Shown here piece by piece: positions 14,731 to 55,474 of a stretch of DNA of 64,000 nt (position 1 is the stretch's first letter; each line of letters begins with the position of its first letter). This DNA comes from an uncultured bacterium (GTDB lineage: Bacteria > Verrucomicrobiota > Verrucomicrobiia > Verrucomicrobiales > V1-33): positions 7,952-71,951 of the forward strand of contig CAIZWU010000118.1 of assembly GCA_903936775.1 (NCBI GenBank), written 5' to 3'. The translations under genes were made by a program, and so were the position numbers. Below the pieces are notes generated by a model. It saw only the letters and a program-made list of their open reading frames with translations. It did not search any database and was not told the DNA's origin.

Positions 14731-14737
14731 CCGGGGT

Positions 14738-34311: not shown

Positions 34312-34974
34312 TCAGGACCCAGGCAAATGGACCGTCGCCAGGATGGTGGAGCCAGGGCCGGGGCGGGTGGAGACGGGATGCGTTTCTCCGGTCTCCAGAT
34401 TGGTTACGCTGGCGGGCTGGCCGTCCCTGATGGTGACATGGATTTTGTCGGGAGGAAGGGACATGCCGCGGCCGGTGGCTTTCATGAGGGCTTCCTTGGC
34501 GGTCCAGAGGTGGAAAAAGCGGTCCACCGGGCCTTCCGCGATCCAGTCGCGTTCTGTGGGCAGGAAAAATTCCGCCGCGATCTCCAGGGCGGGAAAGGTG
34601 GGATCGATGGTTTCCAGATCCACCCCGAGGCGGCCACCCTGACAGATGCCGAGAGCGATCCATCCGCCGGTGTGGGACAGGTTGAAATCCAAGGCTGCCC
34701 CCGGCACATAAAGCCGCCCGCCGGGTTCGGCGGCGATTTCCACCGCTTCCGGACTCAGGCCGAGCACGGACCCCAGCTGCTGTCTGACCCACGCCCGGCC
34801 GCGGACCCAGCGCTGCCGGTCGCGTTCGAAGTGAAACCGTGCCGCACGGAGATGCTCGGAAGCTGACAGGATGGACCAGGCCGCCTCCCCATCGGAAGTG
34901 CCGTCGCCCTCCGTCGGCTGGACGGCGAGCAAAAGCGTTCCCGGGAGCAAGGATGAGCCTGGGAAAAGATCCAT
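34312..34974 (-). CDS. 4'-phosphopantetheinyl transferase, Sfp type
   Basis: Track ORF trimmed to ATG 34974. Motifs FNLSHTGGWIALG, GVDLE and LWTAKEALMKATG. It starts 13 nt downstream of the megasynthase stop. Confidence 0.85.
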   Translation of the reverse strand: MDLFPGSSLLPGTLLLAVQPTEGDGTSDGEAAWSILSASEHLRAARFHFERDRQRWVRGRAWVRQQLGSVLGLSPEAVEIAAEPGGRLYVPGAALDFNLSHTGGWIALGICQGGRLGVDLETIDPTFPALEIAAEFFLPTERDWIAEGPVDRFFHLWTAKEALMKATGRGMSLPPDKIHVTIRDGQPASVTNLETGETHPVSTRPGPGSTILATVHLPGS

Positions 34975-34987
34975 GGACGGGTGAAGG

Positions 34988-37900
34988 CTAGTGGAGTTGG
35001 AAGGGCCGGGCGGGCACCTTGCCTTCAAGGGCCTGGCGCAGTTGGGTGGCCAGGACGCCGGCGTTCTCCGGATCGAAGAGTTCAAGGTGATTGCCGCGGA
35101 CATCGCGGATTTGCAGCGACGCGACCGCCGTGCCCCACCCGTAGTCCGGCAGCCGTTCATACTTGTCGTTCTCGGCGGTCGAGCGCAGCAGCACCATGGA
35201 ACCGGGATACGGCCGGACTTTATAGTCCTGGATGGCATCAATGTGGGTCAGACGGACCTGGATGATCCGCAGATGGCCGGACGCGGCCGTGCCGGAATCC
35301 AACAGGGTGCGGGCTTCCGCTGCCTCGGCATCGCGGTTCAGCTTGCCTTTGAGGCCGGTGCCGATCCGCCCGCCCAGACCTTTGACCTTGCCGCTGAAAT
35401 CCTGTCCGCCCTGACGCCAGCCCGCCGCGAGTCGTTCCGTCAGGGTCAGCATGCGCACGCCCACCCCGGGATTCTCGGTGTCGAAGAGGATCAGATGTTC
35501 CGTGCTCTGGCCGGTGGCCCGGAGTTGCTGCGCCATTTCATAGGCCACCAGTCCGCCGAAGGAGTATCCGCCAATGCGATAGGGGCCCTCGGCCTGGACG
35601 GTTTGCATCAAGGTGATGAAGTGGTGGGCGGTGGCTTCCACGTTCTTCCGTGCCAGCAGCCAGTCATCATCGGTGAGGGCGGGGGACTCGAGGATGTAGA
35701 CCGGGGTTTCCGGCCCCAATCCAGGCAGCAGGGCGCGGTAAAACAGGGCCCCGCCATCGCCGCCATGGAGGAGGAAAAGCGGGGGTGCATCAAGGCCCCG
35801 TTGCAGGCAGGCGAGGGCATCGCCGGCGGGACGCAGCAGGGGATTGGCGCTGGCGTGGTCGATGGCCTCGGACAAACGGCTCAAGGTCGGCGATTTGAAA
35901 AGGGCTCCGAGCGGCAGGGTCACCGAAAAGTCCTGACGGATTTTCTGGATCAGCCGCAGGCCATTGAGCGAGGTGCCCCCGGTATCAAAGAAGTCGGTGT
36001 CGGGGCCGATATGATTGGTGCCCAGCACCTGCTGCCAGAGGCTGGCAAGGCGGATTTCGGTCGCCGTCTGTGGAGGCGTCCATTTCTTGTCAGGCGTGGC
36101 CGAAGCCTCCGGCAGAGGCAGGGCGCGGTAGTCGATCTTGCCGTTGGCGGTGACCGGGAGGGAATCCACCAGCAGGATCACGGAAGGGACCATGTATTCG
36201 GGGAGTTGCTGGCGCACCGCTTCCCGCAGGGTTTTGGGAGTGGCGGGCAGTTCCGGGCGGACCACCACCCACGCCACCAGCCTTTTGCCGGCGGCGGTTT
36301 CCCCTACGGCGGCCACACAGCATTTTTCGACCGAGAGGTGGCGGCCGAGGATGTTTTCCACCTCGCCGGGTTCGATGCGGAATCCGCGTATTTTCACCTG
36401 GGTGTCGATGCGGCCGAGGAATTCCAGCACTCCGTCCACCCGCCAGCGGACCAGGTCGCCGGTGCGATAGAGTGTCGCCTCAGGGTCTGCCGAGAAAGGA
36501 TTCCTCACAAAGGTTTTTGCGGTCAGCTCCGGACGGTTCCAGTAGCCTGGGGCCAGCCCCTCGCCCCCGGTCCACAATTCCCCCGGGACCCCGGGGGGCG
36601 CCGGCTGCCCCTCCGCATCCAGCACGTAAACCGTGGTGTGGGCGACCGGTTTGCCGATCGGAATGATGCCGCTGGCGGCGTCCTCCGGAGTCAGGGTATG
36701 GCAGCAGGTGAAGGTGGTGTTTTCGGTAGGGCCATAGCCGTTGATGATCCGGGTCTCCGGCAGGGCCGCCATGGCTTTGCGGACATGGGCGGGCGAGAGC
36801 ACATCGCCCCCGGCGAGCAGTTGCCGGAGGGACTTCAGGTCGTCCAGCCGCTCATCGACCATCATGGAAAAAAGGCCGGAAGTGAGCCAGAGGGTGGTGA
36901 CGCCATGACGCCGGATGGCGTCACCGATGGCTTCGAGGGACATTTGTCCATCAGGTAGCAGGGCGAGGCGGCCGCCATTGAGCAGCGGGCCCCACAGTTC
37001 CAAGGTGCTGGCATCGAAAGACAGGGCGGCCGCGAGCAGGAAGGTCTGCTGGTCGTCGAGCACGGCATAGTTGGTGTTCCGGACCAGCCGGACGATGCCG
37101 CGGTGGGGCACGGGATTGCCTTTGGGCAGGCCGGTGGAGCCCGAGGTATAGATCAGATAGGCGATGTCTTCCGGCCCGGTCCCCGGATTGGGGTTGCCGC
37201 GGTCCTCCCCCTGGATGGCCTCCTCCAGCAGCAGCGTCTGGATGCCGCCGGGAACGGCCGGAGCATGCCATGAATCCGTCAGGACAAGGCGGATGCCGGC
37301 GTCGCGCAGGAGGAATTCCACGCGTTCCTTTGGATAGGAAGGGTCGACCGGCACGTAGGCGGCCCCGGCTTTGAGGATTCCCAGCAGGCCGGCCACGAGC
37401 TCGAAGGATTTGCCGGCATAGACCGCAATCCGGTCTCCGCGGGCGACTCCGTTGGCAGTGAGAATGCTGGCGATCCGGTTGGCGGTGGTATTCAGGTGGC
37501 GATAAGTCCAGACGCGGTCTTCCTGGAGAATCGCGGGCTGGTCAGGGCGGACGGCGGCGATTTCCTCAAAAAGCGCCGCCGCCGTCCGGGGGGGAGGCGG
37601 AGGGCATCCTGTGTCGTTGAAAGTGGTGAGGATTTCCTCCCGCTGGGCGGCGGAAAGCAGGGGCAATTGCCGCACGGGGGTGGCCGGGGCCGCGATCATG
37701 CCTTCCAGCAAAACCTGATAGTACTGCATCCAGCGCGCCACGGTGGACGGGTGGAAAAGATGGTTCCGGTAGACGCAGAGCAGGCGGAACCCTTCGTTGG
37801 TCTGGAAGGCAAACAGGCTCAGATCAAAGCCGAGCCGGCGTTTGGCATTGAGTTGGAATTCGCCATGCAACCCTCCGCCCAGATCGAGGGGGCCGGCGGC

Positions 37901-40900
37901 GGGTTCCAGGGTGAAGGTGGTCCTGACAAAGCCTGATCTGCCGGCGGCCGTGAGGCCCGGCAACAGGTCCAGGACCTCGCCCAGGGTGCAGTCGAGGTGC
38001 TCCTGGGCGGCGAGGAACTGCTGACGGGTCAAGGCCAGCAGGGAAGTGGCGGTACTGCCTTCCGGGAGGGTGAGGCGGAGAGGCAGGAACTGCACACAAT
38101 GACCCACCAGACCAGGGTTTCCGCTGGCCGGTTGATTGGCCAGCGGCGTGCCGATCACCACATCATCCTGGCCGGTCAGGCGGCCGAGCAGACATTGCCA
38201 CGCAGTCAGGAAGGCCACGTAAGGAGTGACTTTGTTTGCCCGGCAGAAATTCCGCAGCCGTGCAGTGAGGGCGGCCGGCAGCGGTATTTCCAGGGAATCG
38301 GCATCGAGAGGAGTATCGGCCCGGCGCGGCAGATCGGCGGGCAATTCCAACGGCTGGGGCAGCGTGGCGAACTGACCGCGCCACCAGGCCCGGGCTTCTT
38401 CGAACTCACCACGGCTGGCCGCGTCCGTGCGGGTTTCGGCATACGCCGCATAGGACGGGGCCGGAGCCAATGCGGGCAGGGATTCGCCGCAGGCCGACCG
38501 GTAGAACAGGGGCAGCTCGTGCATCAGCACTCCGTAAGACCAGCCATCGCAGATGATATGGTGTGCCGTGAGGGTCAGACGGTGGCGGTCCGGGCCCAGC
38601 TTCAGCAGCAGGGCCCGCATCAAAGGGGGGCGGGCCAGATCGAAGGGAGTGAGGAACTCCCGGCGGCCGGCCTCCTCCCCCCGCCGCGAGGCCTCTTCCT
38701 CCGGGAGGCTGGAGAGATCTTCCTGCACCAGGGGCAGCGCGCCGCCGGGGCTGATCATCATTTGTCCGCCAGCGGCATCAAATCCGGTCCGCAGGGACTC
38801 ATGGCGGCGGGCCAGTTGCTGCAAGGCCGCTTCCAGGGCGGCGGGCTGCAACGGGCCGGAAAAATCCACCGTCAGCGACTCATGACACGCCAGGGAGGCC
38901 CCGGGACTCATGCGGGAAGCGAGGAACATTTCCTGCTGCGCGGGAATCAGCGGAGCGGTGACCGCTTCGGGATGCGGGAAAAAGCCACCCCGTTGGAGGG
39001 CGGAGATGCTGTCCGCGAAAGCCGTCAGGATTTCCTCCACGTCCTGCGCGGTGTGGGCGACGCTGAGGAAGCCGGGGCGTCCTTCCCAGAGGTGGATGCC
39101 GCGCAGGCGGAGGTGATAGTAGAGCAGGCCGGAGTATTTCAGGCCGGGGTCGGCATTCAGCATCCACATGCTGCTGAAGCGGGTCGATTTGAGGGGGACG
39201 CCGGTGGATTCGAAGAGGGCGTTGAGGCGGTCCACGAAGTCCCTCGTCTTGAGTTCCACCGCCTGCTGCAGGGTAGGCCCGATTTCCTTGAGTTTGAGGA
39301 GGACGGCACGGGCCGCGGCGAGGGTCAGGGGATGGCGGATGAAGGTGCCGGCGAAAAAGGTGACGCCCACTTCGGGCATGGAATCGTCGCCGTATTGCCA
39401 CGCTCCGCCATCGAGGGCATCCATGTATTTCCGCTGGCCGCAGATCACGCCCAGGGGCATGCCGCCGCCAATGATTTTGCCGTAGGCGACGAGGTCGGCC
39501 TGGATGCCGAAGTGAGCCTGCGCCCCGCCGGGGCCGGTGCGGAAACCCAGCACCACTTCATCGAAAACGAGGGCGGTGCCGGTGTCGCGGGTGATGGCGC
39601 GGAGCTTTTGGACAAAGTCGATCGGGACCACGTCCGGACGGCGGGACATCACGGGTTCCACCAGCACGCAGGCGATATCGTGGCCGTAGCGCTGCAGGAT
39701 TTCGAGGGATTCGGGATTGTCGTATTCGAGGACGAGGATACTGGCTTGCGCGAGGTCCGGAATGCCGGGCGCAATCGGGATGGAACGCAACTCGCCATTG
39801 ATGACGAGGGGACGGGCAAGGACTTCGTCGAAGATGCCGTGATACCCACCGGCGAACATGGCGATGATGTTGCGGCCGGAGATGGTGCGGCTGGTGCGGA
39901 TGGCGGCCATGAGGGCTTCCGATCCGGTATTGCAGAAGGCGACGCGTTCCTGGCCGCTGAACCCGCGGATGAGGTGGGCGACTTCGCCGGCCAGCGGTGA
40001 GGTGGGCCCGATCTCGAAGCCCAGATCGATCTGGGCGTGGAGGGCATCGGTGACGAATTTCGGACGGTGGCCGAAGAAGCCGAGGCCGAAGCCGTGGACG
40101 ACGTCGATCCAGCGGTGGCCGTCGGTGTCCCAGAGGTAGGCGCCTTCGCTGCGGTCGGTGACGGCGGGGAAGACCATGTCCTTCCACAGGAGATTGAATC
40201 CGGCGACGGCGCGGGGGTCGGCCAGGACGTCGCGGTGGTCGGCGGTGAAGGCTTTGGCTTTAGGGTATTTTGCGGTGTAAGCGGCGATGAGACCGGTGAG
40301 ATGCGCCTGCTGGAGGGGCGTGAGGCTGCCGTCCTTGGCGCGCTCAATGGGCTTGAAGGGGCCGAAGGCGATCTTCCTGCCGTCGCTGCCTTTGAGTGTT
40401 TTGACGGGGACGGTGTAGGCAGAGGCGGTGGGGCTGGAAGAAAAGGCACCGGGCTGGAGGCTGGTGCGGAGGGCGCTGATTTGTTGTTCAATAACAGCGA
40501 GGCGATCGGCGGTGGAGCCGGTGGCCGGGGTGGCGGAAAGCCCGGCCGCAGGGGGGCTGTTTTGAAGTGCTGGGGCAGGAGTGGCAGGCGGAAATTTGTC
40601 AGAGGGAAGTTGGGCGTCCAGCCAGGTGGCAAGATCGGCGATGCTGGCCTGGTCTTCCATCAGTTGGCGGAAGGTGATCTTGAGACCAAAGTGTTTTTTG
40701 AGGGAGTTGGAGGCGGAAGTCAGGAACAGGGAGTCGAAACCGAGGTCGAGGAAGGGCGTGGCGGGGTCGGCGGTGGCGGTGTCGATGCCGGAAATTTGGT
40801 GGAGTTGGGTGCGGAGTTCTTCAACAAGATGGGCATGGCGTGAAACGGCTGCGCTGATGGGAGCTTCCGAAACCAGGACCTCGGGAATTCCGGCGGCAGT

Positions 40901-43642
40901 GGCGCCTGGTGTGGGGACACTTGGCGGCGCGGCGGTGGTGCCGGTGGGGAGTTGGATCCACGCTTCGCCTTCGCGGGTGGTGCCGGCGGGCAGGATGGTG
41001 TCAGGGCAATAACGTTGGCGCTCGAAGGGGTAGCCGGGGAGGGGAAGGCGGCGGCGGCGGGTGTGGTGGTGGAAGGCGGGCCAGTCGAGCGTCAGGCCGT
41101 CGGTCCAGGCTTTGCCGAGGGATTGCAGGAAGGTGGGGTATTCGTTGGCTCCGGCATTCCTGGCGGGAGGGAGCAGCGGGAGCGAAGCCGTGCTGGCGGC
41201 GGCGGGATGTTGTTTGGCGAGGGGCGCGAGGGCGGTGCCGGGACCCACTTCAAGCAAAAGGGACGGGCCGGCCTGACAGAGTGTGGCAATACCATCGGCG
41301 AAGCGGACGGTGTGGCGGATGTGGCGGACGTAGTAGGCGGGATCGGTGGCCTCGGCTCCGGTGATGAATTCCCCCGTGAGATTTGAAATGTAAGGAAGCT
41401 GCGGCGGATGGAGCGTGATGGTGTCAACGGCCGCGCGGAAGGCTTCCAGCATGGGGTCCATCATGGCGCTGTGGAAGGCGTGGCTGGTGTGGAGCTTGCG
41501 GGCAGAGTGTCCGGCGGCTTCGAGCGTCAGGGCGAAGGCCTCGATGGCTTCGGCGGGTCCGGAGACGACGCTGAGACCCGGGGCATTGAGCGCGGCAACG
41601 TCCAACGTGGAAGGTAACAGGGGCAGGAGTCCGGCCTCAGGCAGACGGATGGCCAGCATGGAACCGGGGGCCATGGAGGCCATCAGGCGGCCACGGAGCG
41701 CGACCAGTTTGGTGGCGTCTTCGAGGGACATGACACCGGCGAGGGTGGCGGCAACGTATTCCCCGATGCTGTGGCCCAGCATGGCCGATGGTGTCAGACC
41801 GAAGGAGAGGAGCAGCTTGCCGAGGGCGTATTCGACCGCGAAAAGCGCGGGCTGGGTGAAACGGGTATCGTCGAGATCCGGGATGTTATGGAGATCGAGG
41901 TCCGCTTTGGCAAAACAAACGGCGCAGGCTTCGAAGGCCTCGCGGTAAGCGGGTTCGTGGGCGTAGAGTTCCTCGCCCATGCCAGGGTGTTGCGAGCCCT
42001 GGCCCGGGAAGAGGAAGACCACGGGGGGGGGCGGCGTGTCGGTGTGCGTTGACGGCGCGGGAGTGCGCAGTTGGGCGATGGCGTCCGGGATCGAGGCGAC
42101 CGCGAGGGCCCGGCGGTGGGGGAAGGCCTGCCGGCCGGTTTGCAGGGTCCAGGCAGTGTCCGCCAGGAGGGAATTCGGGATTTCAGATTTGAAATTTGAG
42201 AGGAGGGATTCGAGGTGGGTGGCGAGGTTGTCGCAGGCGGCAGTGAGGGCGGACGGGGTTTTGGCGGAGAGGACGAGGAGTTGGTGGGACCGGGTGGGGG
42301 TTTCGGAAGGAGCGGTGGCAGGGGCTTCCTCCAGCACGACGTGGGCATTGGTGCCGCCGACGCCAAAACTGCTGACGCCGGCGCGGAGGGGGGGGGCGCT
42401 GGTCCATGCCTGGAGTTTGTCGACAATGTAGAAGGGGCTGTCTTCCAGGTTCAGCGCGGGATTGGGACGCTTGAAGTGGAGAGTAGGGGGAAGTTGGCGG
42501 TGGTGGAGGGCCAGGGTGGTTTTGATGAGGCCTCCGATACCGGCGGCGGCGTCCATGTGGCCGGTGTTGGATTTGAGGGAGCCCAGGCCACAGAAGTTTT
42601 TGCGTCCGGTGCTCAGGCGGAAGGCCTGGGTAAGGCCGGCGACTTCGATAGGATCGCCGATGGGGGTGGCGGTGCCGTGGCCTTCGACGTAGGAAATGGT
42701 GTCAGGATCGATGTTGGCGAGCGCTTGGGCGAGGGCGATGACTTCGGCGTGGCCGTCGACGCTGGGGGCAGTGAAGCTGGCTTTTCCGCCGCCGTCATTG
42801 TTGAGGGCGGCGCCCTTGATGACAGCCCAGACGTGGTCGCCCTCCCGGACGGCGTCTTCGAGGCGCTTGAGGAGAACGACGCCGAGTCCATTGGAGAAGA
42901 CGGTGCCGCGGGAGTCGGCATCGTAGGGGCGGCAGTGGCCGTCCGGAGAGTAAAGACTGCCTTCCTGGGCGGTGTAGCCGCGGTGCTGCGGCCACTTGAC
43001 GCTGACGCCTCCGGCGAGGGCGGCGTCGCAGGCGTAGGATTGCAGGGCCTGGACGGCCTGGCAGACCGCCACGAGCGAGGTGGAGCACGCGGTGTAGATA
43101 TTCAGAGCCGGGCCGCGGAGGTTGAGTTTATAAGCCGTGCGGGTGGCGAGGTAGTCCTTTTCATTGGCGATCATGGTGCCCTCATAACCAAACTGGGCGC
43201 GGAGTTCCGCATTGGGCAGGATCTGGTGCTGGACCCACGAACTGTTGGACATGCCGGCGTAGACGCCGATGGCGCCGGGGTAACGGGAGGGGTCGCAGCC
43301 GGCGTCTTCGAGGGCGTGCTGGCAGGACTCGAGGAAGAGGCGCTGCTGGGGGTCGATGACTTCGGCTTCGCGCGGATTGATATTGAAGAAAGCGGCATCA
43401 AACCATTCAGGTTTTTCCAGGACCCCGCGGCGGGGGACGTAGTCAGGGTCGAGTTTGTTTTCCTCGGTGGGGATCTCTTCGACAGGGATGGTGGAGATGG
43501 TTTCGCGGCCGGCGGTGAGGTTTTCCCAGAAGGCGCTGAGGGTTTCCGCTCCGGGAAAACGCCCGGCCATGCCGACGATGGCGATGCCTTCGAGGGAGGG
43601 GGCGGCAGCTGGAGGGGACTGGGAGTCGGAGAAGCTGCTCAT
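34988..43642 (-). CDS. hybrid PKS-NRPS megasynthase: KS-AT-ACP-aminotransferase-C-A-T-TE
   Basis: 2884 aa from ATG 43642 (the track ORF extends to 43894 as Pro-rich read-through). Approximate domains follow. KS 42323-43594 (TACSTS, EGHGTAT, SNTGH). AT 41123-42022 (GHSIGE, HAFH). ACP 40613-40840 (LGFDS). Class-III PLP aminotransferase 38978-40345 (AFCNTGSEA, YGKIIGGGMP). C 37658-38959 (HHIICDGWS). A 36113-37585 (LIYTSGSTGLPKG, NGYGPTE, ANGKID; hand-read code DALWLGGTFK). T 35849-36070 (FFDTGGTS). TE 35018-35800 (GYSFGG, plus downstream Asp and His). Confidence 0.95.
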   Translation of the reverse strand: MSSFSDSQSPPAAAPSLEGIAIVGMAGRFPGAETLSAFWENLTAGRETISTIPVEEIPTEENKLDPDYVPRRGVLEKPEWFDAAFFNINPREAEVIDPQQRLFLESCQHALEDAGCDPSRYPGAIGVYAGMSNSSWVQHQILPNAELRAQFGYEGTMIANEKDYLATRTAYKLNLRGPALNIYTACSTSLVAVCQAVQALQSYACDAALAGGVSVKWPQHRGYTAQEGSLYSPDGHCRPYDADSRGTVFSNGLGVVLLKRLEDAVREGDHVWAVIKGAALNNDGGGKASFTAPSVDGHAEVIALAQALANIDPDTISYVEGHGTATPIGDPIEVAGLTQAFRLSTGRKNFCGLGSLKSNTGHMDAAAGIGGLIKTTLALHHRQLPPTLHFKRPNPALNLEDSPFYIVDKLQAWTSAPPLRAGVSSFGVGGTNAHVVLEEAPATAPSETPTRSHQLLVLSAKTPSALTAACDNLATHLESLLSNFKSEIPNSLLADTAWTLQTGRQAFPHRRALAVASIPDAIAQLRTPAPSTHTDTPPPPVVFLFPGQGSQHPGMGEELYAHEPAYREAFEACAVCFAKADLDLHNIPDLDDTRFTQPALFAVEYALGKLLLSFGLTPSAMLGHSIGEYVAATLAGVMSLEDATKLVALRGRLMASMAPGSMLAIRLPEAGLLPLLPSTLDVAALNAPGLSVVSGPAEAIEAFALTLEAAGHSARKLHTSHAFHSAMMDPMLEAFRAAVDTITLHPPQLPYISNLTGEFITGAEATDPAYYVRHIRHTVRFADGIATLCQAGPSLLLEVGPGTALAPLAKQHPAAASTASLPLLPPARNAGANEYPTFLQSLGKAWTDGLTLDWPAFHHHTRRRRLPLPGYPFERQRYCPDTILPAGTTREGEAWIQLPTGTTAAPPSVPTPGATAAGIPEVLVSEAPISAAVSRHAHLVEELRTQLHQISGIDTATADPATPFLDLGFDSLFLTSASNSLKKHFGLKITFRQLMEDQASIADLATWLDAQLPSDKFPPATPAPALQNSPPAAGLSATPATGSTADRLAVIEQQISALRTSLQPGAFSSSPTASAYTVPVKTLKGSDGRKIAFGPFKPIERAKDGSLTPLQQAHLTGLIAAYTAKYPKAKAFTADHRDVLADPRAVAGFNLLWKDMVFPAVTDRSEGAYLWDTDGHRWIDVVHGFGLGFFGHRPKFVTDALHAQIDLGFEIGPTSPLAGEVAHLIRGFSGQERVAFCNTGSEALMAAIRTSRTISGRNIIAMFAGGYHGIFDEVLARPLVINGELRSIPIAPGIPDLAQASILVLEYDNPESLEILQRYGHDIACVLVEPVMSRRPDVVPIDFVQKLRAITRDTGTALVFDEVVLGFRTGPGGAQAHFGIQADLVAYGKIIGGGMPLGVICGQRKYMDALDGGAWQYGDDSMPEVGVTFFAGTFIRHPLTLAAARAVLLKLKEIGPTLQQAVELKTRDFVDRLNALFESTGVPLKSTRFSSMWMLNADPGLKYSGLLYYHLRLRGIHLWEGRPGFLSVAHTAQDVEEILTAFADSISALQRGGFFPHPEAVTAPLIPAQQEMFLASRMSPGASLACHESLTVDFSGPLQPAALEAALQQLARRHESLRTGFDAAGGQMMISPGGALPLVQEDLSSLPEEEASRRGEEAGRREFLTPFDLARPPLMRALLLKLGPDRHRLTLTAHHIICDGWSYGVLMHELPLFYRSACGESLPALAPAPSYAAYAETRTDAASRGEFEEARAWWRGQFATLPQPLELPADLPRRADTPLDADSLEIPLPAALTARLRNFCRANKVTPYVAFLTAWQCLLGRLTGQDDVVIGTPLANQPASGNPGLVGHCVQFLPLRLTLPEGSTATSLLALTRQQFLAAQEHLDCTLGEVLDLLPGLTAAGRSGFVRTTFTLEPAAGPLDLGGGLHGEFQLNAKRRLGFDLSLFAFQTNEGFRLLCVYRNHLFHPSTVARWMQYYQVLLEGMIAAPATPVRQLPLLSAAQREEILTTFNDTGCPPPPPRTAAALFEEIAAVRPDQPAILQEDRVWTYRHLNTTANRIASILTANGVARGDRIAVYAGKSFELVAGLLGILKAGAAYVPVDPSYPKERVEFLLRDAGIRLVLTDSWHAPAVPGGIQTLLLEEAIQGEDRGNPNPGTGPEDIAYLIYTSGSTGLPKGNPVPHRGIVRLVRNTNYAVLDDQQTFLLAAALSFDASTLELWGPLLNGGRLALLPDGQMSLEAIGDAIRRHGVTTLWLTSGLFSMMVDERLDDLKSLRQLLAGGDVLSPAHVRKAMAALPETRIINGYGPTENTTFTCCHTLTPEDAASGIIPIGKPVAHTTVYVLDAEGQPAPPGVPGELWTGGEGLAPGYWNRPELTAKTFVRNPFSADPEATLYRTGDLVRWRVDGVLEFLGRIDTQVKIRGFRIEPGEVENILGRHLSVEKCCVAAVGETAAGKRLVAWVVVRPELPATPKTLREAVRQQLPEYMVPSVILLVDSLPVTANGKIDYRALPLPEASATPDKKWTPPQTATEIRLASLWQQVLGTNHIGPDTDFFDTGGTSLNGLRLIQKIRQDFSVTLPLGALFKSPTLSRLSEAIDHASANPLLRPAGDALACLQRGLDAPPLFLLHGGDGGALFYRALLPGLGPETPVYILESPALTDDDWLLARKNVEATAHHFITLMQTVQAEGPYRIGGYSFGGLVAYEMAQQLRATGQSTEHLILFDTENPGVGVRMLTLTERLAAGWRQGGQDFSGKVKGLGGRIGTGLKGKLNRDAEAAEARTLLDSGTAASGHLRIIQVRLTHIDAIQDYKVRPYPGSMVLLRSTAENDKYERLPDYGWGTAVASLQIRDVRGNHLELFDPENAGVLATQLRQALEGKVPARPFQLH
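42176..42204. repeat. AT-rich tandem-heptamer tract, copy 4 (ATTTCAG ATTTGAA ATTTGAG), in the KS-AT linker of the hybrid gene
   Basis: Plus strand cgggATTTCAGATTTGAAATTTGAGagga. It matches copy 1 at 28 of 29 nt but is translated in a different frame (LLSNFKSEIP). Confidence 0.8.
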
Positions 43643-43700: not shown

Positions 43701-46700
43701 TTAACGGCGGGCGGCGGCGGCCCGTTGGGCAGCGGCGCGGGCGGCGGCAGCGCGGGATGGGATGTCGTGGGCGGGCGGGGTGCCGGCCGGGGAGGGTGCC
43801 GGGGAAAGCCAGGCCGCAAGGGTGGCGATAGTGGGGTATTGGAAGAGGGCGGTGATGGGAAGGGGGCGGGCAAGTTCCTGACTGGTGGCGGCATGGACGC
43901 GGAGCATCAGAAGGGAGTGGCCGCCGAGGTCGAAGAAGTTGTCCATGGTGCTGATGCTGGTCAGGCCGAAGGCGCGCTGCCAGATGGCGGCGAGGCGTTG
44001 CTCCATGGGGGTGGACGGGGATTTGAAATTTGAAGTTTCAAGTTTGGGAGCGGCCGCGGGGGGAGAACACTGGGGGGGAAGCGGCAAGGCGGCGAGGTGT
44101 TGTGAGAGCGGTGCCCCGGGGTGGGTGGCGAAAGATTGAAGGAGGGTGGTGAAGGAAGCCACGATCTGCCGGGCGCGGGGGGCGGAGCAGGCGGCTTCCT
44201 GATAAACGAGGAGAAGATCCCAGGAGGCAGCGGAAGGGGTGACAACCACGGTGAGGGGGAAGTTGGTGTGGATGGGGCCGTCGAAATCTGAGAGGGTGGT
44301 CCGGGAGCCGAGTTGGGTGAGGGTCCCGTCGATTTGATAGTTCTGGAAGACGAGGAGGCTCTCAAAGAGGCGGAACCGCCACGGGACCGCGGAGCAGTCC
44401 TGGATGCGCGGGAGCGGGGTGGACTGGTGGGCGGCGAGATCGGTGAGGTGGTGGTGGACGCTGCGGAGGAAGTCGCTGGCGGGGAGGGCAGGATCGATTT
44501 TCGAGCGGACGGGGAGGTTATTGACGAAAGGTCCGGGGATGCGGTCGGCCCCGGGGAGGTCAGCCGGACGGCCGGAGAACGCCGAGCCGTGGACGACATC
44601 CTGGCTGCCGGCGGCGTGGGAGAGCAGGGCGGCCCAGGCGGCCTGGACGAGGACGCCGGGCGTGAGGCCGAGGCCGCGCGCGGCAGCCGTCAGGGAGGCG
44701 GAGGTTTCCGGGGAAAGGGTGGCGCGGGCTTCGGCCGTGCGCCGGGAAGTGCGGGGTCCGGGGAGGGCCTCGACCGGAATGGGGGTAGGAGCTTCAATCC
44801 CGGCCAGGGTGGCTTGCCAGAAGGGGTCGGAGCTGGCTTCGGGTTGGCGCTCCAGCCAAGCGAGGTAGTCACGGTAGGGCTGCGGGGACGGGAGGCCGGG
44901 GTTCCCTCCGGAGGTTAGCGCACGGTAGGTGGCAGCGGCTTCCGCGAAGACGACAGGCCAGGACCAGCCGTCAAGTTGGAGGCCGGGGACAGACCAGCAG
45001 AAGAAGTGATCCTCCGGGGAGAGGCGCATCAGGGTGAAACGGCCACAGGGCGCCTTGGTGAGGTCGTTGACGAGGGAGGCGTCCGAAGTGAGGAAATGAG
45101 TGATGCAGCCGGGACCACTGGATTCAAGGAAGTTGAATTCCGGGACCGCGGTGCGGTGCACCATCATGACGGCGTGCGGCAGGCCGGCACTGTGGAAGGT
45201 GGAGCGCAGGATGGTATGGCGTTGGACCACTTGGGCCCAGGCGGCCTGGAGCGCGGAGACGTCCAGCGGTCCGCCGATGCGGCAACACCATTGATCGAAG
45301 CCGGCGTTGGGTTTGGTGAGGGCGGCATGGTGGAACAGCCGCTGCATGGGGGAGAGGCGGCAGATGTCTTCCGGGCCCGGATGGGCGGCGAGGAGGGCAT
45401 CGAGGCTGGCCTGATCCAGGTGGGCGAGGGGAAAATCGGACGGCGTGCAGCGGGGAGTGGTGATGGTCAGGCAATGACCGATGACCTGATGGAGGGCGGT
45501 GAGGAAGGCTTCGGCGAAAGCCGTGAGGCTTTCCGGGGTGTGGGCCGGGGCAGCACTGGTGAAGGTAGTTTCCAGGCGGCTACCGATGACCATGGCGTTG
45601 ATTTCGGTGGCGTGGGCGCGGGTGGCGCGGGGGCTGTGCCAGGGGCCGGTGGATTCCGGGGCAAAGGAGAAGAGGGCACTGCCGGAAGTGAGGGCGTCGA
45701 ATTGCCCCAGGTAGTTGAAGACGAGGGTGGAGGAAGCGTTTTCAGTGGCTTGCCACTGATGGCTGGCGCCGTTGTCGGGGAGGGCGCGGAGGTGTTCTTT
45801 GATGAATGGAATAGCCTGGGCGGGGTCGGTTGACGGGACGGTGAGGTGGAGGGGGAAAAGGGCGGTGAACCAACCGATGGTGCGGTCCAACGGCAGGCCG
45901 GGCGCGAGGGTCTCTTCCCGGCCGTGACCTTCCAGATGCAGGGACAGGGTGGGGGCGGATGCCGTGGCCTGATGAGCCAGCGTCAGGGCTGTCAGCAGAA
46001 GGTCGTTGATGCGGGTGCGGTAGGCGGCGGGGGCGCGGTGGAGGAGGGCGGTGGTGTTGGCCTCGTCGAGGGCGACGGTGTGGGCAAAGGTGCCGGATTC
46101 GAGTGTTAGGTCAGCTTCCGGGACGGGCTGGATGGTGGACCAGTAATGGAGGCTTGGGCGGGCTTCCGGGGTGGTGGGCCAGTGGGCGAGTTGGCGGGCC
46201 CACTGCGGCCAGGTGGCGGTGGGGGCTGGGAGCGGCTGGCCGGTCAGGAGGGACTCGAGGTCTTCCAGAAGGATACGCCAGGACACGCCGTCGATGGCGA
46301 GGTGGTGGACGGCGAGGCAGAGGCGGCCGGGGCGGTCTTCGCCCGCGTCGAAGAGGGCGGCGCGGATGATCGGGCCGGTTTGGTGGTTGAGGGTGGTCTG
46401 CAGCTGGGCGCAGTGGGATTCCAAGCCGGTGAGATCCGGATAGGTGGTGAGGAGGTGGGCGGTTTCCTCCGGGGCGATGGAAGGCGTCCAAGTGTTGTTT
46501 TCCTGATGGAATCTCAGGCGCAGCGCGGGATGGCGGGCGGTGAGTTCACGGAGGACGCGGTGAAGGCATTCGGGATCGGGGCGGTCACTGAGGGTGAAGA
46601 GGAACGATTGGTTCCAGTGGTGGGAATCAGCTAGGTTTTGAGCGAAGAACCAGCGCTGGATGGGCGTGAGGGGGAAGGGGGCGGTGAGGTCGTCCGGGGA

Positions 46701-49700
46701 TGATTGAAGACTTGAGATATGAGATTGGAGCGGGGGCGCAACGCTGGCGAGAGAGGCGATCGTGGGGTGCTCGAAGAGTTGCCGCGGGGTGAGGGCGAGG
46801 CCGGCTTCGCGGGCCCGGGCGATGACTTGGATGGAAAGGATGGAATCGCCTCCGATCTCGAAAAAGTTGTCGGTGGTGCTGACGCGGTCGAGGCGGAGGA
46901 CCGCAGACCAGATGAGGGTCAGGACTGCCTCGGAGGGGGTGACGGGGGCTTGGAACGGGCGGGTGGTGGCGGGGCCGTCAGCGGCGGGCGCGGGGAGGGC
47001 CTTGCGGTCGAGTTTTCCGTTCGGAGTGATAGGAAACTTTTCCAGGAAGACGAAAGCGGCCGGGATCATGTAGTCCGGGACGCGGGTTTTGAGGAGGGCG
47101 CGGAGCTCATCCGGGGACGGTGGGTCGGCGGGGTCGGCAGGGACGAGGTAGGCGCAGAGGCGTTTGCCGCCGGGGCAGTCTTCGCGGGCGAGAACGGTGG
47201 CTTCCTCGACCGCGGGATGGGAAGTCAGGATATTTTCGATTTCACCCAGCTCGATGCGGAAGCCGCGGATTTTGACCTGGTGGTCGATGCGGCCGAGGTA
47301 TTCGATGTCGGGACTGGCGGCCCCGGGAATGAAGCGGGCTAGGTCGCCGGTTTTGTAGAGCCGCCCGTGGCCGGTCAGGTGGTTGGGGAGGAAACGGTCG
47401 GCGGTCAGTTCATCCCTCCGGAGGTAGCCGGTGGCGAGGCCAGCTCCGCCGACATACATCTCGCCGGGAACGCCGATGGGGACCGGTTGGCCATTGCCAG
47501 GATCGAGGATGTAGAGCTGGAGATCCGGGATGGGGATGCCGATGACGGAGCCACTCTCCAAATCCCGGGAGGACAGGGGGCGGTAGGTGACATGGACCGT
47601 CGTCTCCGTGATCCCATACATGTTGACGAGAACCGGGGCGGTGTCGCCGTGCCGGTCGAACCATGGTTTGAGGCTCTGCATTTCGAGGGCTTCGCCCCCG
47701 AAGATCACGTAGCGGAGGGACTGGGCCGGGAGGCCAGGATGGGTGGCGCGGGCGCGGGGTCCGGCCTGGATGAGTTGGCGGAAGGCGCTGGGGGTTTGGT
47801 TGAGGACGGTGACTTGTTCCTGACAGAGGAGGGCAAAGAACTCGTCAGGGCTGCGGCTGGTGAGCCAGGGGACGACGACAAGGCGGCCTCCGAAGAGGAG
47901 GGCGCCCCAGAGTTCCCAGACGCTGAAATCGAAGGCGGTGGAGTGGAAAAGGGTCCAAACGTCGTTTTCGTTGAAGCCATACCAGGGGTCGGTGGCTTTC
48001 ATGAGGCGGACCACGTTGCGGTGGGTGATCTGGCAGCCTTTGGGGAGGCCGGTGGAGCCGCTGGTGTATATGATGTAGGCCAGCGAGTCCGGGTCGGTGG
48101 GGATCCGGGATTTGAGATTTGAAATTTGAGAGGAAGCCGCGAAACCGATGTCTTCGATGAAGAGGGTAGTGGCGGGGTTTCCGGGGATTTTGGAGGCGAG
48201 GGGGCGCTCGGTCAGGAGGACGGGGGCCCGGGCGTCCTCCAGCATGAAGGCGAGGCGCGCGGGCGGGTAGGCGAGGTCGATCGGAAGGTAGGCGGCGCCG
48301 GCTTTGAGGATGCCGAGCAGTGACGCGATGAGCGGGGCGCGGCGGTCCATGCAGAGGCCGACGAAGTCACCAGGCTTGACGCCGGCGGTGATGAGAGCCT
48401 GGGCGACGAGGGTGGAGCGGCGGTCGAGTTCCGCGTAGGTCCAGGTGGCGTCTTCGGCGGTGACGGCGGTGCGGTTGGGATATTGCGCGGCGGTTTGGCT
48501 GAACCAGCCGTGGAGGGTGGTGTCCGAGTCAACCTGGGGGTCGGTGGGTTGCCAGTCCTGGAGGAGGAATTGGCGTTCGGCCGGAGTGATGAGGTGGAAC
48601 TTGGAAAGCGCGGTGGTCAGAGGGAGGGTGGCGAATTGCTCAAGGAGCTGGGCCATGTGGCCGAGGAGGCGTTGGATGGTTTCGTGGTCGAAGGTGGCGG
48701 GCTGATAGGCGCAATGGAGGCGGAGGGCGTGGGAGCCGTAAACGGCCAGGGTGAGGGGGACGCTGGTGAGTTCGTGGAGCTCGAAGGTGCGGTGGGCAAA
48801 GGCCGGTCCGCCGGTGGCGCGGAGCGTGTTGGTGTAGTCGTCGTTTTCGAAGACTAGGAGGTGGTTGAATGGAACCTGGGTGGCGCTGAGGCCGCAACTG
48901 CGGCGGATGAAGGAAAGCGGGGTCTGCTCGTGGGGACGGAGGTCGAGCCAGTGCTGGCGGAGCGACTGGAGGAGCGTGAGGAGGGGTTGGTTGGAGGGAA
49001 GATCGGCTTTGAGGGGGAGGGTGTTGATGAGGAGGCCGATGGTATTTTCCGAGTCCGGCACGGGAGTGTGGCGGCAGGCGCGGGTGGCTCCGAAAATGAT
49101 ACGGTCTTCCCCGGCGTAACGGCCCAGCAGGAGCGCGAAGGCCGCTTGGACAAAAGTATTTAACGTGAAGCCATGGGTGGCGGCGAGGTGGCGCAGGGTG
49201 GCAGTCAGGGAAGCGGGAAAGTGGAGATCGGCTTCTGCCTGGGGGGAGCGGGAGGAAACAGAATCAGCCGCGCCTGCAGGACTGGGACGGTGATTGGCGA
49301 TGGGCCTGATGACGTGATCGACGATCAGGGGGGTGGGGCCGGTGATGCCGCTGAGGTGGGACTGCCAGAAAGGAATGGAGGGCGTGTGGTCGAGCGAGGC
49401 TTGCCAGCGATTGTGGGATTGGAAGGACGGGCGGGATGGAGGGGGTTCCTGTGAGGGAATGTCGTAGCGGGAGAAGACTTCCTGGAGCAGGGCGGTGATG
49501 GCCCTGCCGTCGATCAGAATGTGATGGAACGTCCAGATGAGATGGTAATGCTCTGGCGACTGGCGGATAAGGGTGAGGCGTTGCAGGGGGCCTGCGGTCA
49601 GGTGAAGAGGGGTGGTGCGGTCATTTTCGAGGAAAGCGGCGACATCTGAGGAGTCCAGTTCTTGCCAGGGAACGGGGAGGGTATCGTGGACGGTGGCGGC

Positions 49701-49916
49701 TTCGGCGGTGAAGGTGGTGCGGAGAATGGGGTGGGCCGCGGCGAGGGCTTCCCATGCGGCGCGGAGGCGGGGGGCCTCAATGCTTTCCGGGAGGGTGCAG
49801 ACCATTTGCTCGACGTCGATCCCTGCGGCCGGGTCCTGGAGCCACGTAAAGTACATGCCCTGCTGCAGCGGGGTCAGCGGCAGGGGTGTTTCAGGCGCAG
49901 GCAGGGGGGCGCTCAT
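43701..49916 (-). CDS. non-ribosomal peptide synthetase: C-A(Thr)-T-E-C*-T
   Basis: 2071 aa. Approximate domains follow. C 48582-49889 (HHILIDG). A 46992-48524 (AYIIYTSGSTGLPKG, FDFSVWE, NMYGITETTVH, PNGKLD; hand-read code DFWNIGMVHK). T 46737-46949 (FFEIGGDS). E 45417-46685 (PLTPIQRWFF, HHLAIDG). C* 44082-45374 (all core motifs present except that HHxxxDG reads PGLQLDG at 44967-44987). T 43797-44015 (FFDLGGHS). Confidence 0.95.
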   Translation of the reverse strand: MSAPLPAPETPLPLTPLQQGMYFTWLQDPAAGIDVEQMVCTLPESIEAPRLRAAWEALAAAHPILRTTFTAEAATVHDTLPVPWQELDSSDVAAFLENDRTTPLHLTAGPLQRLTLIRQSPEHYHLIWTFHHILIDGRAITALLQEVFSRYDIPSQEPPPSRPSFQSHNRWQASLDHTPSIPFWQSHLSGITGPTPLIVDHVIRPIANHRPSPAGAADSVSSRSPQAEADLHFPASLTATLRHLAATHGFTLNTFVQAAFALLLGRYAGEDRIIFGATRACRHTPVPDSENTIGLLINTLPLKADLPSNQPLLTLLQSLRQHWLDLRPHEQTPLSFIRRSCGLSATQVPFNHLLVFENDDYTNTLRATGGPAFAHRTFELHELTSVPLTLAVYGSHALRLHCAYQPATFDHETIQRLLGHMAQLLEQFATLPLTTALSKFHLITPAERQFLLQDWQPTDPQVDSDTTLHGWFSQTAAQYPNRTAVTAEDATWTYAELDRRSTLVAQALITAGVKPGDFVGLCMDRRAPLIASLLGILKAGAAYLPIDLAYPPARLAFMLEDARAPVLLTERPLASKIPGNPATTLFIEDIGFAASSQISNLKSRIPTDPDSLAYIIYTSGSTGLPKGCQITHRNVVRLMKATDPWYGFNENDVWTLFHSTAFDFSVWELWGALLFGGRLVVVPWLTSRSPDEFFALLCQEQVTVLNQTPSAFRQLIQAGPRARATHPGLPAQSLRYVIFGGEALEMQSLKPWFDRHGDTAPVLVNMYGITETTVHVTYRPLSSRDLESGSVIGIPIPDLQLYILDPGNGQPVPIGVPGEMYVGGAGLATGYLRRDELTADRFLPNHLTGHGRLYKTGDLARFIPGAASPDIEYLGRIDHQVKIRGFRIELGEIENILTSHPAVEEATVLAREDCPGGKRLCAYLVPADPADPPSPDELRALLKTRVPDYMIPAAFVFLEKFPITPNGKLDRKALPAPAADGPATTRPFQAPVTPSEAVLTLIWSAVLRLDRVSTTDNFFEIGGDSILSIQVIARAREAGLALTPRQLFEHPTIASLASVAPPLQSHISSLQSSPDDLTAPFPLTPIQRWFFAQNLADSHHWNQSFLFTLSDRPDPECLHRVLRELTARHPALRLRFHQENNTWTPSIAPEETAHLLTTYPDLTGLESHCAQLQTTLNHQTGPIIRAALFDAGEDRPGRLCLAVHHLAIDGVSWRILLEDLESLLTGQPLPAPTATWPQWARQLAHWPTTPEARPSLHYWSTIQPVPEADLTLESGTFAHTVALDEANTTALLHRAPAAYRTRINDLLLTALTLAHQATASAPTLSLHLEGHGREETLAPGLPLDRTIGWFTALFPLHLTVPSTDPAQAIPFIKEHLRALPDNGASHQWQATENASSTLVFNYLGQFDALTSGSALFSFAPESTGPWHSPRATRAHATEINAMVIGSRLETTFTSAAPAHTPESLTAFAEAFLTALHQVIGHCLTITTPRCTPSDFPLAHLDQASLDALLAAHPGPEDICRLSPMQRLFHHAALTKPNAGFDQWCCRIGGPLDVSALQAAWAQVVQRHTILRSTFHSAGLPHAVMMVHRTAVPEFNFLESSGPGCITHFLTSDASLVNDLTKAPCGRFTLMRLSPEDHFFCWSVPGLQLDGWSWPVVFAEAAATYRALTSGGNPGLPSPQPYRDYLAWLERQPEASSDPFWQATLAGIEAPTPIPVEALPGPRTSRRTAEARATLSPETSASLTAAARGLGLTPGVLVQAAWAALLSHAAGSQDVVHGSAFSGRPADLPGADRIPGPFVNNLPVRSKIDPALPASDFLRSVHHHLTDLAAHQSTPLPRIQDCSAVPWRFRLFESLLVFQNYQIDGTLTQLGSRTTLSDFDGPIHTNFPLTVVVTPSAASWDLLLVYQEAACSAPRARQIVASFTTLLQSFATHPGAPLSQHLAALPLPPQCSPPAAAPKLETSNFKSPSTPMEQRLAAIWQRAFGLTSISTMDNFFDLGGHSLLMLRVHAATSQELARPLPITALFQYPTIATLAAWLSPAPSPAGTPPAHDIPSRAAAARAAAQRAAAARR
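44017..44049. repeat. tandem-heptamer tract, copy 3 (ATTTGAA ATTTGAA GTTTCAA GTTTGGG), in the C*-T linker
   Basis: Plus strand ggggATTTGAAATTTGAAGTTTCAAGTTTGGGa. It encodes PKLETSNFKSP. Confidence 0.7.
46703..46730. repeat. degenerate tandem-heptamer tract, copy 2 (ATTGAAG ACTTGAG ATATGAG ATTGGAG), in the T-E linker
   Basis: It is preceded by gggg, like the other copies, and encodes LQSHISSLQS. Confidence 0.55.
48106..48134. repeat. AT-rich tandem-heptamer tract, copy 1 (ATTTGAG ATTTGAA ATTTGAG), inside the NRPS A domain
   Basis: Plus strand cgggATTTGAGATTTGAAATTTGAGagga. It encodes SSQISNLKSR in the variable loop before the AYIIYTSGSTG core motif. Confidence 0.8.
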
Positions 49917-50698
49917 GCGGGGAAGAGATCGGTGCGGCGGTCGCGCAAGGCAGGGAATTGAGCGCGCCAGGCAGCGGTGGTTTCGGCGGAAATGGTGGTG
50001 CGGAGGAGGGTGGGGGCGGAACCCGCTTCGGTGACGACTTCACCGTGGGGATCGATGATGGCGCTGGCTCCGGCGTAGTGGAAATGGGGGTCGGAACCGC
50101 AGCGGTTGAGGCCGAGCACGAAGGCTTGGTTCTCGATGGCGCGGGCGCGGAGCAGGATGGTTTTATGCTGCTGGCGGCGGTCGGGCCAGTTGGCGATGAC
50201 GCAGAAGAGGTCGGCCCCGGCGCCGGTGGCGGCGCGGAAAAGTTCCGGGAAGCGGAGGTCGTAGCAGATGACGGGAGCGACCGTGAAGCCGTTCCACGGG
50301 AAGGTGACGATTTCCGAGCCCGCAGTGAAGGCCTGGGCTTCGCCAGCCGGGGAGAAGGAGTGGATCTTCCGGTAGCGGGCGAGGAGGGAGCCGTCGGGGG
50401 AGAAGGCGAGGGCCTCGTTGGCTCCGGTCCCGTCAGGAAGCTGCCGGGACAGGCCACCCAGGACGTAAATCCGGTGCTGGCGGGCGAGGCTGGCGAGGAA
50501 GCTTTCCGTCTCGGCGGCGGGAGTGTCGGCGGCTTGCGACACGTTCATGCTGAAGCCACTGGAGAACATTTCGGGCAGTACCAAGAGCGAGCCGGGGGCA
50601 AGGGCAGGGCGGGCGGAGTCCAGAGCCTGCGAGACGGTGGTAAAGTTCGCCGAACGGTCCTCCCAAGCGATGTCGAATTGAAGGGCACAAAGTTCCAT
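49913..50698 (-). CDS. carbon-nitrogen hydrolase, omega-amidase (YafV/Nit2)-like
   Basis: Trimmed to ATG 50698 (MELCALQFDIAWED). Nitrilase-superfamily Glu-Lys-Cys triad contexts: LVLPEMF, YRKIHSF and APVICYDLRFPE. Also ANWP and RARAIENQAFV. By eye it is collinear with E. coli YafV. Its stop overlaps the NRPS start (ATGA at 49913-49916). Confidence 0.8.
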   Translation of the reverse strand: MELCALQFDIAWEDRSANFTTVSQALDSARPALAPGSLLVLPEMFSSGFSMNVSQAADTPAAETESFLASLARQHRIYVLGGLSRQLPDGTGANEALAFSPDGSLLARYRKIHSFSPAGEAQAFTAGSEIVTFPWNGFTVAPVICYDLRFPELFRAATGAGADLFCVIANWPDRRQQHKTILLRARAIENQAFVLGLNRCGSDPHFHYAGASAIIDPHGEVVTEAGSAPTLLRTTISAETTAAWRAQFPALRDRRTDLFPA

Positions 50699-50982
50699 GG
50701 GACAAAAGGCAGTAAATTCTAAAAAATATACTGAATACAGTAAATCCAAAACACTCCATTTGCAAGAAATATTACAAACCTTAATAACCAATCAAAATTG
50801 ATCTAAACGGTTGGGCGGCCCTGCGGTTCGCGTCGGGTTCAGGGAGAAGAATGTGTCCGCGGTGAGAAAATATGGGCAGGTATAAAAAAGACGGAAAGAT
50901 TGATTATAATTCTAAAAATACTGGAAAAAACCAAAGGATCGTTTATACTTTACGGCAATTACCCGATTTATTTGCAATTTCC
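50699..50982. promoter_or_regulatory. AT-rich divergent intergenic (promoter) region between the NRPS/PKS operon and the polysaccharide-export operon
   Basis: This is the lowest-GC stretch in the neighbourhood. It lies between divergent starts at 50698 (minus) and 50983 (plus; the track allows 50872). It contains a direct repeat AATTCTAAAAA(TA)TACTG at 50715-50733 and 50908-50923. Confidence 0.45.
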
Positions 50983-52602: not shown

Positions 52603-52607
52603 AACCC

Positions 52608-53189: not shown

Positions 53190-53203
53190 CTTTTTCACAA
53201 AAA

Positions 53204-55450: not shown

Positions 55451-55474
55451 CTCTTATCCCCCTGCCTCCCTGCT

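Follow-up and report, generated by a model that had tools for sequence, protein, structure and literature searches.

Here, we describe a polyketide synthase (PKS) module encoded in a 64,000-nucleotide stretch of DNA (hereafter, the window) from an uncultured member of the Verrucomicrobiales (lineage V1-33; GenBank assembly GCA_903936775.1, contig CAIZWU010000118.1, positions 7,952 to 71,951 of the forward strand). The module lies at 38978-43642 on the minus strand, where a ketosynthase (KS), a malonyl-type acyltransferase (AT), an acyl carrier protein (ACP) and an aminotransferase (AMT) domain open a hybrid protein encoded behind a nonribosomal peptide synthetase (NRPS) gene. Our analysis, which draws on sequence comparisons, indicates that this segment is probably a working, NRPS-primed and amine-installing polyketide module within a four-gene operon, and that it would yield a β,γ-diamino unit. 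The module is real, conserved and uncharacterized—an AMT module of the MycA type, most likely primed by an NRPS, that is not unique to the window and that belongs to a large, equally uncharacterized group of amino-acid-primed KS-AT-ACP-AMT modules.

An intact, reductase-free module with a MycA-type aminotransferase domain

The initial annotation of the window had delimited the module at precisely these coordinates, and this assignment held: the limits fit the segment from KS through AMT exactly, and the segment is intact. The AT(malonyl)-ACP-AMT order proposed to follow the KS, devoid of reductive domains, likewise agrees with the order obtained with Pfam—which returned no match to a ketoreductase (KR), dehydratase (DH) or enoylreductase (ER) in the module or anywhere else in the hybrid protein. 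Each catalytic motif occurs once (residue numbers of the hybrid protein count from the long open reading frame [ORF] at 34988-43894): Cys270 (in TACSTS), His406 and His446 in the KS, GHSIGE and HAFH in the AT, Ser1055 in the ACP, and Lys1473 (in YGKIIGGG) and Asp1445 (in FDEVV) in the AMT. The catalytic Cys-His-His triad of the KS is complete, and the domain is predicted to be condensation-competent.

Along its entire length, the AMT domain matches the crystallized AMT of MycA (6KFM, 6KFR and 6KFU; E-value of 2.5e-128), with residues 4-440 of the domain facing residues 18-454 of 6KFM. The two domains are ~48% identical, as estimated by eye, and the next-best structural matches, with E-values of ~1e-50, are glutamate-1-semialdehyde (GSA) aminomutases. 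A concern raised beforehand, i.e., that the lysine binding pyridoxal 5'-phosphate (PLP) in YGKIIGGG could have been misassigned, was not borne out, as the motif is identical in the MycA AMT and the alignment spans the full domain. Moreover, three sequence features expected of MycA-type domains were found: the lysine within GK(I/V)IGGG, the Asp of DEV..GFR, and a place between the ACP of a reductase-free module and a condensation (C) domain. The AMT is thus a MycA-type, in-line PKS aminotransferase domain, predicted to carry out a Gln-dependent amination of an ACP-bound β-keto thioester; Gln is the amino donor of the AMT of MycA (PMC3870968).

If the AMT were inactive, or did something other than β-keto transamination, no diamine would be formed. 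That no enzyme assay of an NRPS-primed AMT was found in the literature speaks for this possibility, which we nevertheless regard as highly improbable: together with the full-length alignment to the MycA AMT, the Lys, Asp and phosphate-binding motifs are all kept, the KS (75-97% identity) and the AMT (70-97%) are the best-conserved domains within the Verrucomicrobiales clade, and an omega-amidase suited to Gln-dependent transamination is co-conserved.

Evidence for priming of the ketosynthase by an NRPS carrier

The upstream NRPS has the domain order C-A(Thr)-T-E-C*-T, where A stands for an adenylation domain, T for a carrier domain, E for an epimerization domain and C* for a C domain without the canonical histidines. 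The specificity code extracted for its A domain was DFWNIGMVHK (Thr), and that of the A domain downstream of the AMT was DALWLGGTFK (Val); the code column extraction was validated on the A domain of an ItuA/BmyA-type protein (Bacillus record), for which it gave the canonical Asn code DLTKIGEVGK. The KS had initially been described as sitting directly behind a Thr-activating NRPS, and this is correct insofar as the second carrier domain (T2) ends the NRPS gene 58 nt before the hybrid gene. However, the E domain, the His-less C domain and T2 separate the Thr module from the KS, such that the presumed feeder is T2, placed after E and C*, and not the Thr module itself.

Several architectural features point to T2 as the KS donor. 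In locus L006 (protein P0020, 4920 aa; also P0064) and in protein P0109, T2 and the KS lie in one polypeptide, ~20 residues apart. No fatty-acyl-AMP ligase (FAAL) or loading ACP was found in the operon; the hybrid protein begins 19 residues before its KS and does not have the N-terminal acyl-AMP ligase-ACP of the iturin family, a layout truly displayed by L079 and L081. In addition, a maximum likelihood tree of 87 KSs was reconstructed, with an ItuA/BmyA-type protein, a Ralstonia hybrid, a Planktothrix FAAL-ACP system and a Burkholderia PKS as the fatty-acyl- or polyketide-primed AMT references. The KS of the window falls in a 38-member clade (SH-aLRT support of 97), all members of which follow an NRPS carrier, and the FAAL- and polyketide-primed reference KSs form a clade of their own (SH-aLRT support of 98). 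Sequence identities of the window KS range between 51% and 57% to NRPS-primed KSs and between 43% and 53% to polyketide-primed KSs, and are lowest, at ~42%, to the FAAL-primed group.

As for the cargo of T2, a search of the genome (95% complete) with TIGR01733 gave just two amino-acid adenylation domains above the cut-off, both encoded in the operon (Thr and Val). The expected sources for T2 are therefore limited to loading by A1 (Thr), loading by A2 (Val) and transfer of a Thr-ended chain from the first carrier domain (T1). A loader acting in trans from elsewhere in the genome was considered and rejected, the two sub-threshold matches being an acetyl-CoA synthetase and an AMP-binding protein encoded beside BamA. 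We infer that a Thr-ended donor on T2 is most likely the substrate of the KS.

At the position of the canonical HHxxxDG motif, C* carries PGLQLDG in the window and L005, and PDLQLDG in L001-L004, L006, L007 and L019; VP[D/G]LQLDG is fixed in the Verrucomicrobiales clade (L001-L007, L019). Since C* (49-91% identity within the clade) is conserved as well as or better than the first C domain of the NRPS (C1, 43-90%), the E domain (41-90%) and the C domain behind the AMT (C4, 39-88%), it is under selection rather than decaying. Because the counterpart C domain of the more distant relative P0109 keeps HHLQVDG and both A domains of this protein have Thr codes, the ancestral line would have performed a normal condensation, the acceptor being a carrier that lacked its own A domain and could hardly hold anything but Thr.

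Proposed pathway and alternative readings

In the pathway that we propose, C1 would N-acylate Thr on T1, and the E domain would epimerize the T1-bound residue. The chain would then reach T2, either by condensation with a second Thr (loaded by A1 on the A-less T2) or by plain transfer via the atypical C*. The KS would accept the Thr-ended thioester from T2 and, with AT and ACP providing malonate, a Claisen condensation would produce 4-(acylamino)-5-hydroxy-3-oxohexanoyl-ACP—the 3-keto group of which would be turned into a 3-amino group by the AMT, probably with glutamine as the donor. The omega-amidase of the operon would remove the resulting 2-oxoglutaramate, C4 would add Val and the thioesterase (TE) would release the product. 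The resulting unit would be a 3-amino-4-acylamino-5-hydroxyhexanoyl residue, i.e., a β,γ-diamino acid. The original proposal, in which Thr, malonate and transamination give a vicinal diamine, is retained in that two neighboring nitrogens are the most likely outcome; N4, however, is likely an amide, because a C domain opens the line, so the unit would be a 3-amino-4-acylamino structure and not a free diamine. A free vicinal diamine would fit the A-T-primed relatives described below better than the window.

The amidase lends circumstantial weight to this scheme. The closest solved structures to the CN-hydrolase of the operon are 3P8K, 2E11, mouse Nit2 (2W1V) and yeast Nit3 (1F89), and a Nit2-like amidase gene is kept ahead of the synthetases in L001, L002, L003, L005, L006 and L009. 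This shared retention would fit the removal of 2-oxoglutaramate after a Gln-dependent transamination.

A number of observations speak against the proposed pathway, or against NRPS priming in particular. Both HHxxxDG histidines are gone from C*, which leaves the chain transfer from T1 to T2 without explanation, and no acyl-activating gene for C1 was found within the operon. The KS phylogeny, put forward in the initial annotation as a check on priming, places the window KS among NRPS-primed KSs and apart from the FAAL clade, but the approximately unbiased (AU) test does not reject a tree with the focal KS clade beside that of the fatty-acyl-primed KSs (p = 0.48), an outcome probably due to the length of the FAAL branch, which can join the tree at many points. 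We regard the tree as supportive of NRPS priming and not decisive, with the architectural evidence being the stronger of the two. The AMT tree did not give a clean split between NRPS-primed and FAAL-primed domains and was set aside as evidence on priming. In L009, from a Verrucomicrobiales metagenome-assembled genome (MAG), the omega-amidase gene directly precedes KS-AT-ACP-AMT-C-A(Val)-T-TE (5947-15622), and no NRPS was found in the 5.9 kb upstream of the amidase and hybrid genes, so the hybrid can also occur where this feeder is missing. Finally, no characterized product or enzymology of an amino-acid-primed AMT module was found in the full-text literature.

Some of these points favor a scenario in which a non-amino acyl group—a fatty acyl-ACP, a fatty acyl-CoA or a polyketide made by another locus of the genome—primes the KS in an iturin-like manner, the NRPS not being colinear with the hybrid protein. 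The hybrid gene of L009 occurs without an upstream NRPS, the AU test leaves room for a sister relation to FAAL-type KSs, and another contig of the genome encodes a highly reducing PKS together with a free-standing C domain. We nonetheless consider such priming very unlikely, given that the operon contains neither a FAAL nor a loading ACP, that T2-KS fusions occur among the relatives, and that the window KS nests among NRPS-primed KSs and is least identical to the FAAL-type ones (~42%).

The loss of both histidines would fit a catalytically dead C*. A1 would then load free Thr onto T2 and prime the KS, giving a truly free 3,4-diamino-5-hydroxyhexanoyl unit, and C1-A-T1-E would act later (e.g., acylating one of the amines) or make a separate product. 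The many A(Thr)-T-KS-AT-ACP-AMT loci make free-Thr priming a standard design. Yet C1, E and C* have all been retained, and their motifs are intact or fixed even where identity falls to 41-49%, which favors use of the T1 chain through C*, and a free γ-amino-β-keto thioester would be prone to self-cyclization. Priming with free Thr therefore seems unlikely in the window, as does a detached role for C1-A-T1-E.

The motif of C* being fixed and not decaying would also suit a function other than peptide bond formation, whereby Thr is altered before it reaches the KS. For instance, the C*-T pair might dehydrate Thr to dehydrobutyrine, and the AMT would act on another 4-acylamino-3-oxo chain, one without the 5-hydroxyl group. 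A-less C-T pairs with an atypical C domain perform modifications elsewhere, as exemplified by the CmodAA of AmbE and by MxgE (PMC13638107). However, the literature consulted treats the C domains known to catalyze dehydration as a clade of their own, separate from the domains without the histidines, and the canonical HHLQVDG at the same position in P0109 points to an ancestral ordinary condensation. We hence attach little credence to a prior modification of Thr, and favor the delivery of an unmodified, Thr-ended chain to the KS.

Distribution of related modules

Genome contigs were scanned for related loci, and 78 were kept. Amino-acid-primed KS-AT-ACP-AMT modules are carried by more than 40 loci from several phyla. 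The junction between E-C*-T and KS-AT-ACP-AMT recurs in seven Verrucomicrobiales loci besides the window, and the whole operon, including the genes for the amidase and the phosphopantetheinyl transferase (PPTase), in L001, L002, L003, L005 and L006. In ~24 loci, mostly from Terracidiphilus and other Acidobacteriaceae, A(Thr)-T directly feeds KS-AT-ACP-AMT; this bare loading module is also present in Variovorax, Parapedobacter and Desulfobacterales. In L030, from a deltaproteobacterial MAG related to the latter, the loading position is taken by C-A(Thr)-T. Most of the A(Thr)-T-primed loci go on with C-A(Gly)-T and C-T-TE, and other KS-AT-ACP-AMT loci are primed by Val, a Pro-like code or further codes. 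Two metagenomic proteins of ~4750 aa, P0109 and P0114, unite the entire line as F-A(Thr)-T-E-C-T-KS-AT-ACP-AMT-C-A(Thr)-T-TE in a single polypeptide, with a formyltransferase (F) instead of the first C domain.

Further observations concern the same set of loci. The A domain that follows the AMT switches its code among the Verrucomicrobiales loci, with Val in the window, L001, L002 and L005 and Thr in L003, L004, L006 and L007, at KS and AMT identities of 70-97%. The KS of L009 groups with that of P0025, which follows an unassigned N-terminal region of ~585 residues and then a carrier domain. Loci L056-L077 (Acidobacteriaceae and others) form a sister family lacking the AMT, with A(Gly)-T-KS-AT-ACP-C-T-TE in one protein and an A-less C-T end.

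According to the initial annotation, the building block is not known to be made in this way. This view stands to the extent that no characterized product was found; the design, however, is not special to the window, as it is shared by the ~24 A(Thr)-T loci and was listed as early as 2013, when the architectures A-CP-KS-AT-CP-PLP and C-A-CP-KS-AT-CP-PLP-C-A-CP (CP, carrier protein) were catalogued without products (PMC3870968, Table 2). Apart from this catalogue, the full-text literature searched for in-line AMT modules gave only fatty-acyl or polyketide cases, i.e., mycosubtilin, ralsolamycin, flavipulchrins and zeamine. No assembly-line β,γ-diamino acid was found in the literature, the γ-diamino topic giving only papers on the 2,4-diaminobutyrate (Dab) of polymyxin, and the guadinomine literature yielded no mechanistic detail. 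There was no named, characterized relative among the best 120 matches in a collection of 5.8 billion proteins.

Comparison with known systems

The closest characterized counterparts are MycA and ItuA, the A subunits of the mycosubtilin and iturin synthetases, which share the KS-(AT)-ACP-AMT-C-A-T order without reductive domains. These proteins start with an acyl ligase and an ACP and extend a fatty acid (a layout seen in the ItuA/BmyA-type protein of L079), whereas the donor in the window is an NRPS carrier, no acyl ligase is present and the KS, ~42% identical to FAAL-primed KSs, belongs to another clade. In terms of chemistry, a parallel is found in biotin synthesis, where BioF performs a Claisen-type condensation and BioA, a class-III aminotransferase, turns the resulting α-amino ketone into a vicinal diamine. 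The logic is the same (8-amino-7-oxononanoate to 7,8-diaminononanoate), but BioF and BioA are stand-alone enzymes that act on free intermediates, with S-adenosylmethionine as the amino donor of BioA, whereas the substrate in the window would be carrier-bound and the domain is MycA-like.

The amino-acid-primed A-T-KS-AT-ACP-AMT lines of Acidobacteria, Variovorax, Bacteroidota and others have the module itself in common with the window, at 43-57% identity in the KS, and ~24 of them also the Thr code. They differ in having a bare A-T loading module, which leaves the amine free, mostly followed by Gly and then C-T-TE; in the window, by contrast, the module is preceded by C-A-T-E-C*-T and followed by a Val module, and an omega-amidase gene is present. 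Statine-type modules, such as those of pepstatin and didemnin, also extend an amino acid thioester by malonate on a hybrid KS (PMC13638107), but there a KR reduces the keto group, whereas the hybrid protein of the window has no KR according to Pfam and carries the AMT in its place.

Organization of the operon and its surroundings

The region is dominated by two large minus-strand ORFs, namely the hybrid PKS-NRPS ORF (34988-43894) and that of the upstream NRPS. The hybrid gene truly starts at the ATG at 43642-43640, downstream of the TAA stop of the NRPS gene, and P0003, a 99% identical database homolog of 2884 aa, begins at the same Met. The 84 proline-rich codons ahead of it (43643-43894) run, in a different frame, into the 3' end of the NRPS gene, and were rejected as an ORF-calling artifact of GC-rich DNA. 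The hybrid protein, also of 2884 aa, has the order KS-AT(malonyl)-ACP-AMT-C-A(Val)-T-TE. On the long ORF, Pfam delimits the KS (residues 102-474), the KS-AT linker (477-610), the AT (626-909), the ACP (~1011-1110), Aminotran_3 (1242-1563), C (1646-2089), A (2109-2586), T (2615-2678) and TE (from 2705). The E-values of the domains span 1e-17 to 1e-90, and these assignments are therefore not chance matches. The operon comprises four genes in ~16.5 kb, encoding an omega-amidase-like protein, the NRPS, the hybrid PKS-NRPS and a PPTase (Table 1).

Table 1. Features of the operon and of associated polysaccharide genes. Positions refer to the window, except in the last row, which refers to locus L011.
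Feature	Position	Strand	Remarks
CN-hydrolase (Nit2/YafV-type, omega-amidase-like)	49913..50791	-	First operon gene; Pfam CN_hydrolase, 5e-40
C1, N-terminal condensation domain	48561..49883	-	Starter-type by position; intact HHILIDG
A1, adenylation domain	47013..48503	-	Code DFWNIGMVHK (Thr)
T1, carrier domain	46746..46922	-	GGDS, Ser1025
E, epimerization domain	45357..46691	-	HHLAIDGVSW
C*, DCL-like condensation domain	44022..45341	-	PGLQLDG (44967-44987) at the HHxxxDG position
T2, carrier domain	43752..43991	-	GGHS, Ser2001; no A domain of its own; presumed KS donor
KS	42473..43591	-	Cys270, His406, His446
AT	41168..42019	-	Malonyl-type motifs GHSIGE and HAFH
ACP	40565..40864	-	GFDS, Ser1055
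AMT, class-III (GSA-aminomutase-like)	38981..40291	-	Lys1473 in YGKIIGGG (39476-39478); Pfam PF00202, 5.8e-41
C4, condensation domain	37628..38959	-	HHIICDG
A2, adenylation domain	36137..37570	-	Code DALWLGGTFK (Val)
T3, carrier domain	35861..36052	-	Pfam
TE, thioesterase	34988..35782	-	GYSFGG
Sfp-type phosphopantetheinyl transferase	34312..35241	-	Last operon gene; kept in relatives
Polysaccharide cassette (outer-membrane beta-barrel, Wzc-like co-polymerase, WbaP-like phosphoglycosyl transferase)	50872..56971	+	Divergent from the operon
Polysaccharide genes flanking the synthetases of L011	4548-9881 and 23458-26088

Two other loci of the same genome were noted. On contig C35 (L085, 391-8000), a second thiotemplate locus encodes a highly reducing PKS (DH-MT-ER-KR-ACP, with MT for methyltransferase) that is truncated where the contig ends; a free-standing condensation domain of 477 aa and a fatty-acid desaturase come next. 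In the window, a 1002-aa fusion of a major facilitator superfamily transporter, a lysophospholipid-type acyltransferase and an AMP-binding domain (LplT/Aas-like) is encoded at 14738-17746 on the minus strand; its gene is 17 kb away from the operon, with which it probably has no connection.

Linkage to polysaccharide genes

The cassette encoding WbaP, Wzc and an outer-membrane barrel stays beside the operon in L001, L002, L003, L005 and L006, down to ~53% identity. More broadly, 23 AMT-containing loci belonging to several phyla have WbaP- or Wzc-like genes no more than 10 kb away, as compared with 1 of ~20 related AMT-less loci—a count of co-location, in which many of the loci are close relatives of each other. 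In L011 of Terracidiphilus, the Thr-primed synthetase genes are co-directional with, and lie inside, a polysaccharide operon, with WbaP, acyltransferase and flippase genes on one side and two GT4 glycosyltransferase genes on the other. Polysaccharide genes of these kinds (WbaP-like, Wzc-like, barrel, flippase and GT4 genes) occur beside or around AMT lines, including that of L009. This co-location allows for a speculative and rather doubtful interpretation, i.e., that amino-acid-primed KS-AT-ACP-AMT lines could be accessory modules of polysaccharide loci rather than free-standing antibiotic clusters, with a small, very polar, Thr-derived β,γ-diamino acid peptide that would be joined to an exopolysaccharide or its lipid-linked precursor, or exported along with either.

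Implications

If the proposed reading is correct, the module would represent a general, genome-encoded assembly-line route to β,γ-diamino acids, made from an amino acid, malonate and in-line transamination. Vicinal diamines are valued as pharmacophores and as binders of metals or nucleic acids. The module would also be a ready-made engineering part, because the KR of statine-type logic is swapped for an AMT. Moreover, the operon is small and self-contained—with its own PPTase and an amidase that probably removes the by-product—and therefore lends itself to heterologous expression. The recurrent association with polysaccharide genes is a hint that these assembly lines may serve a function beyond classical secondary metabolism.

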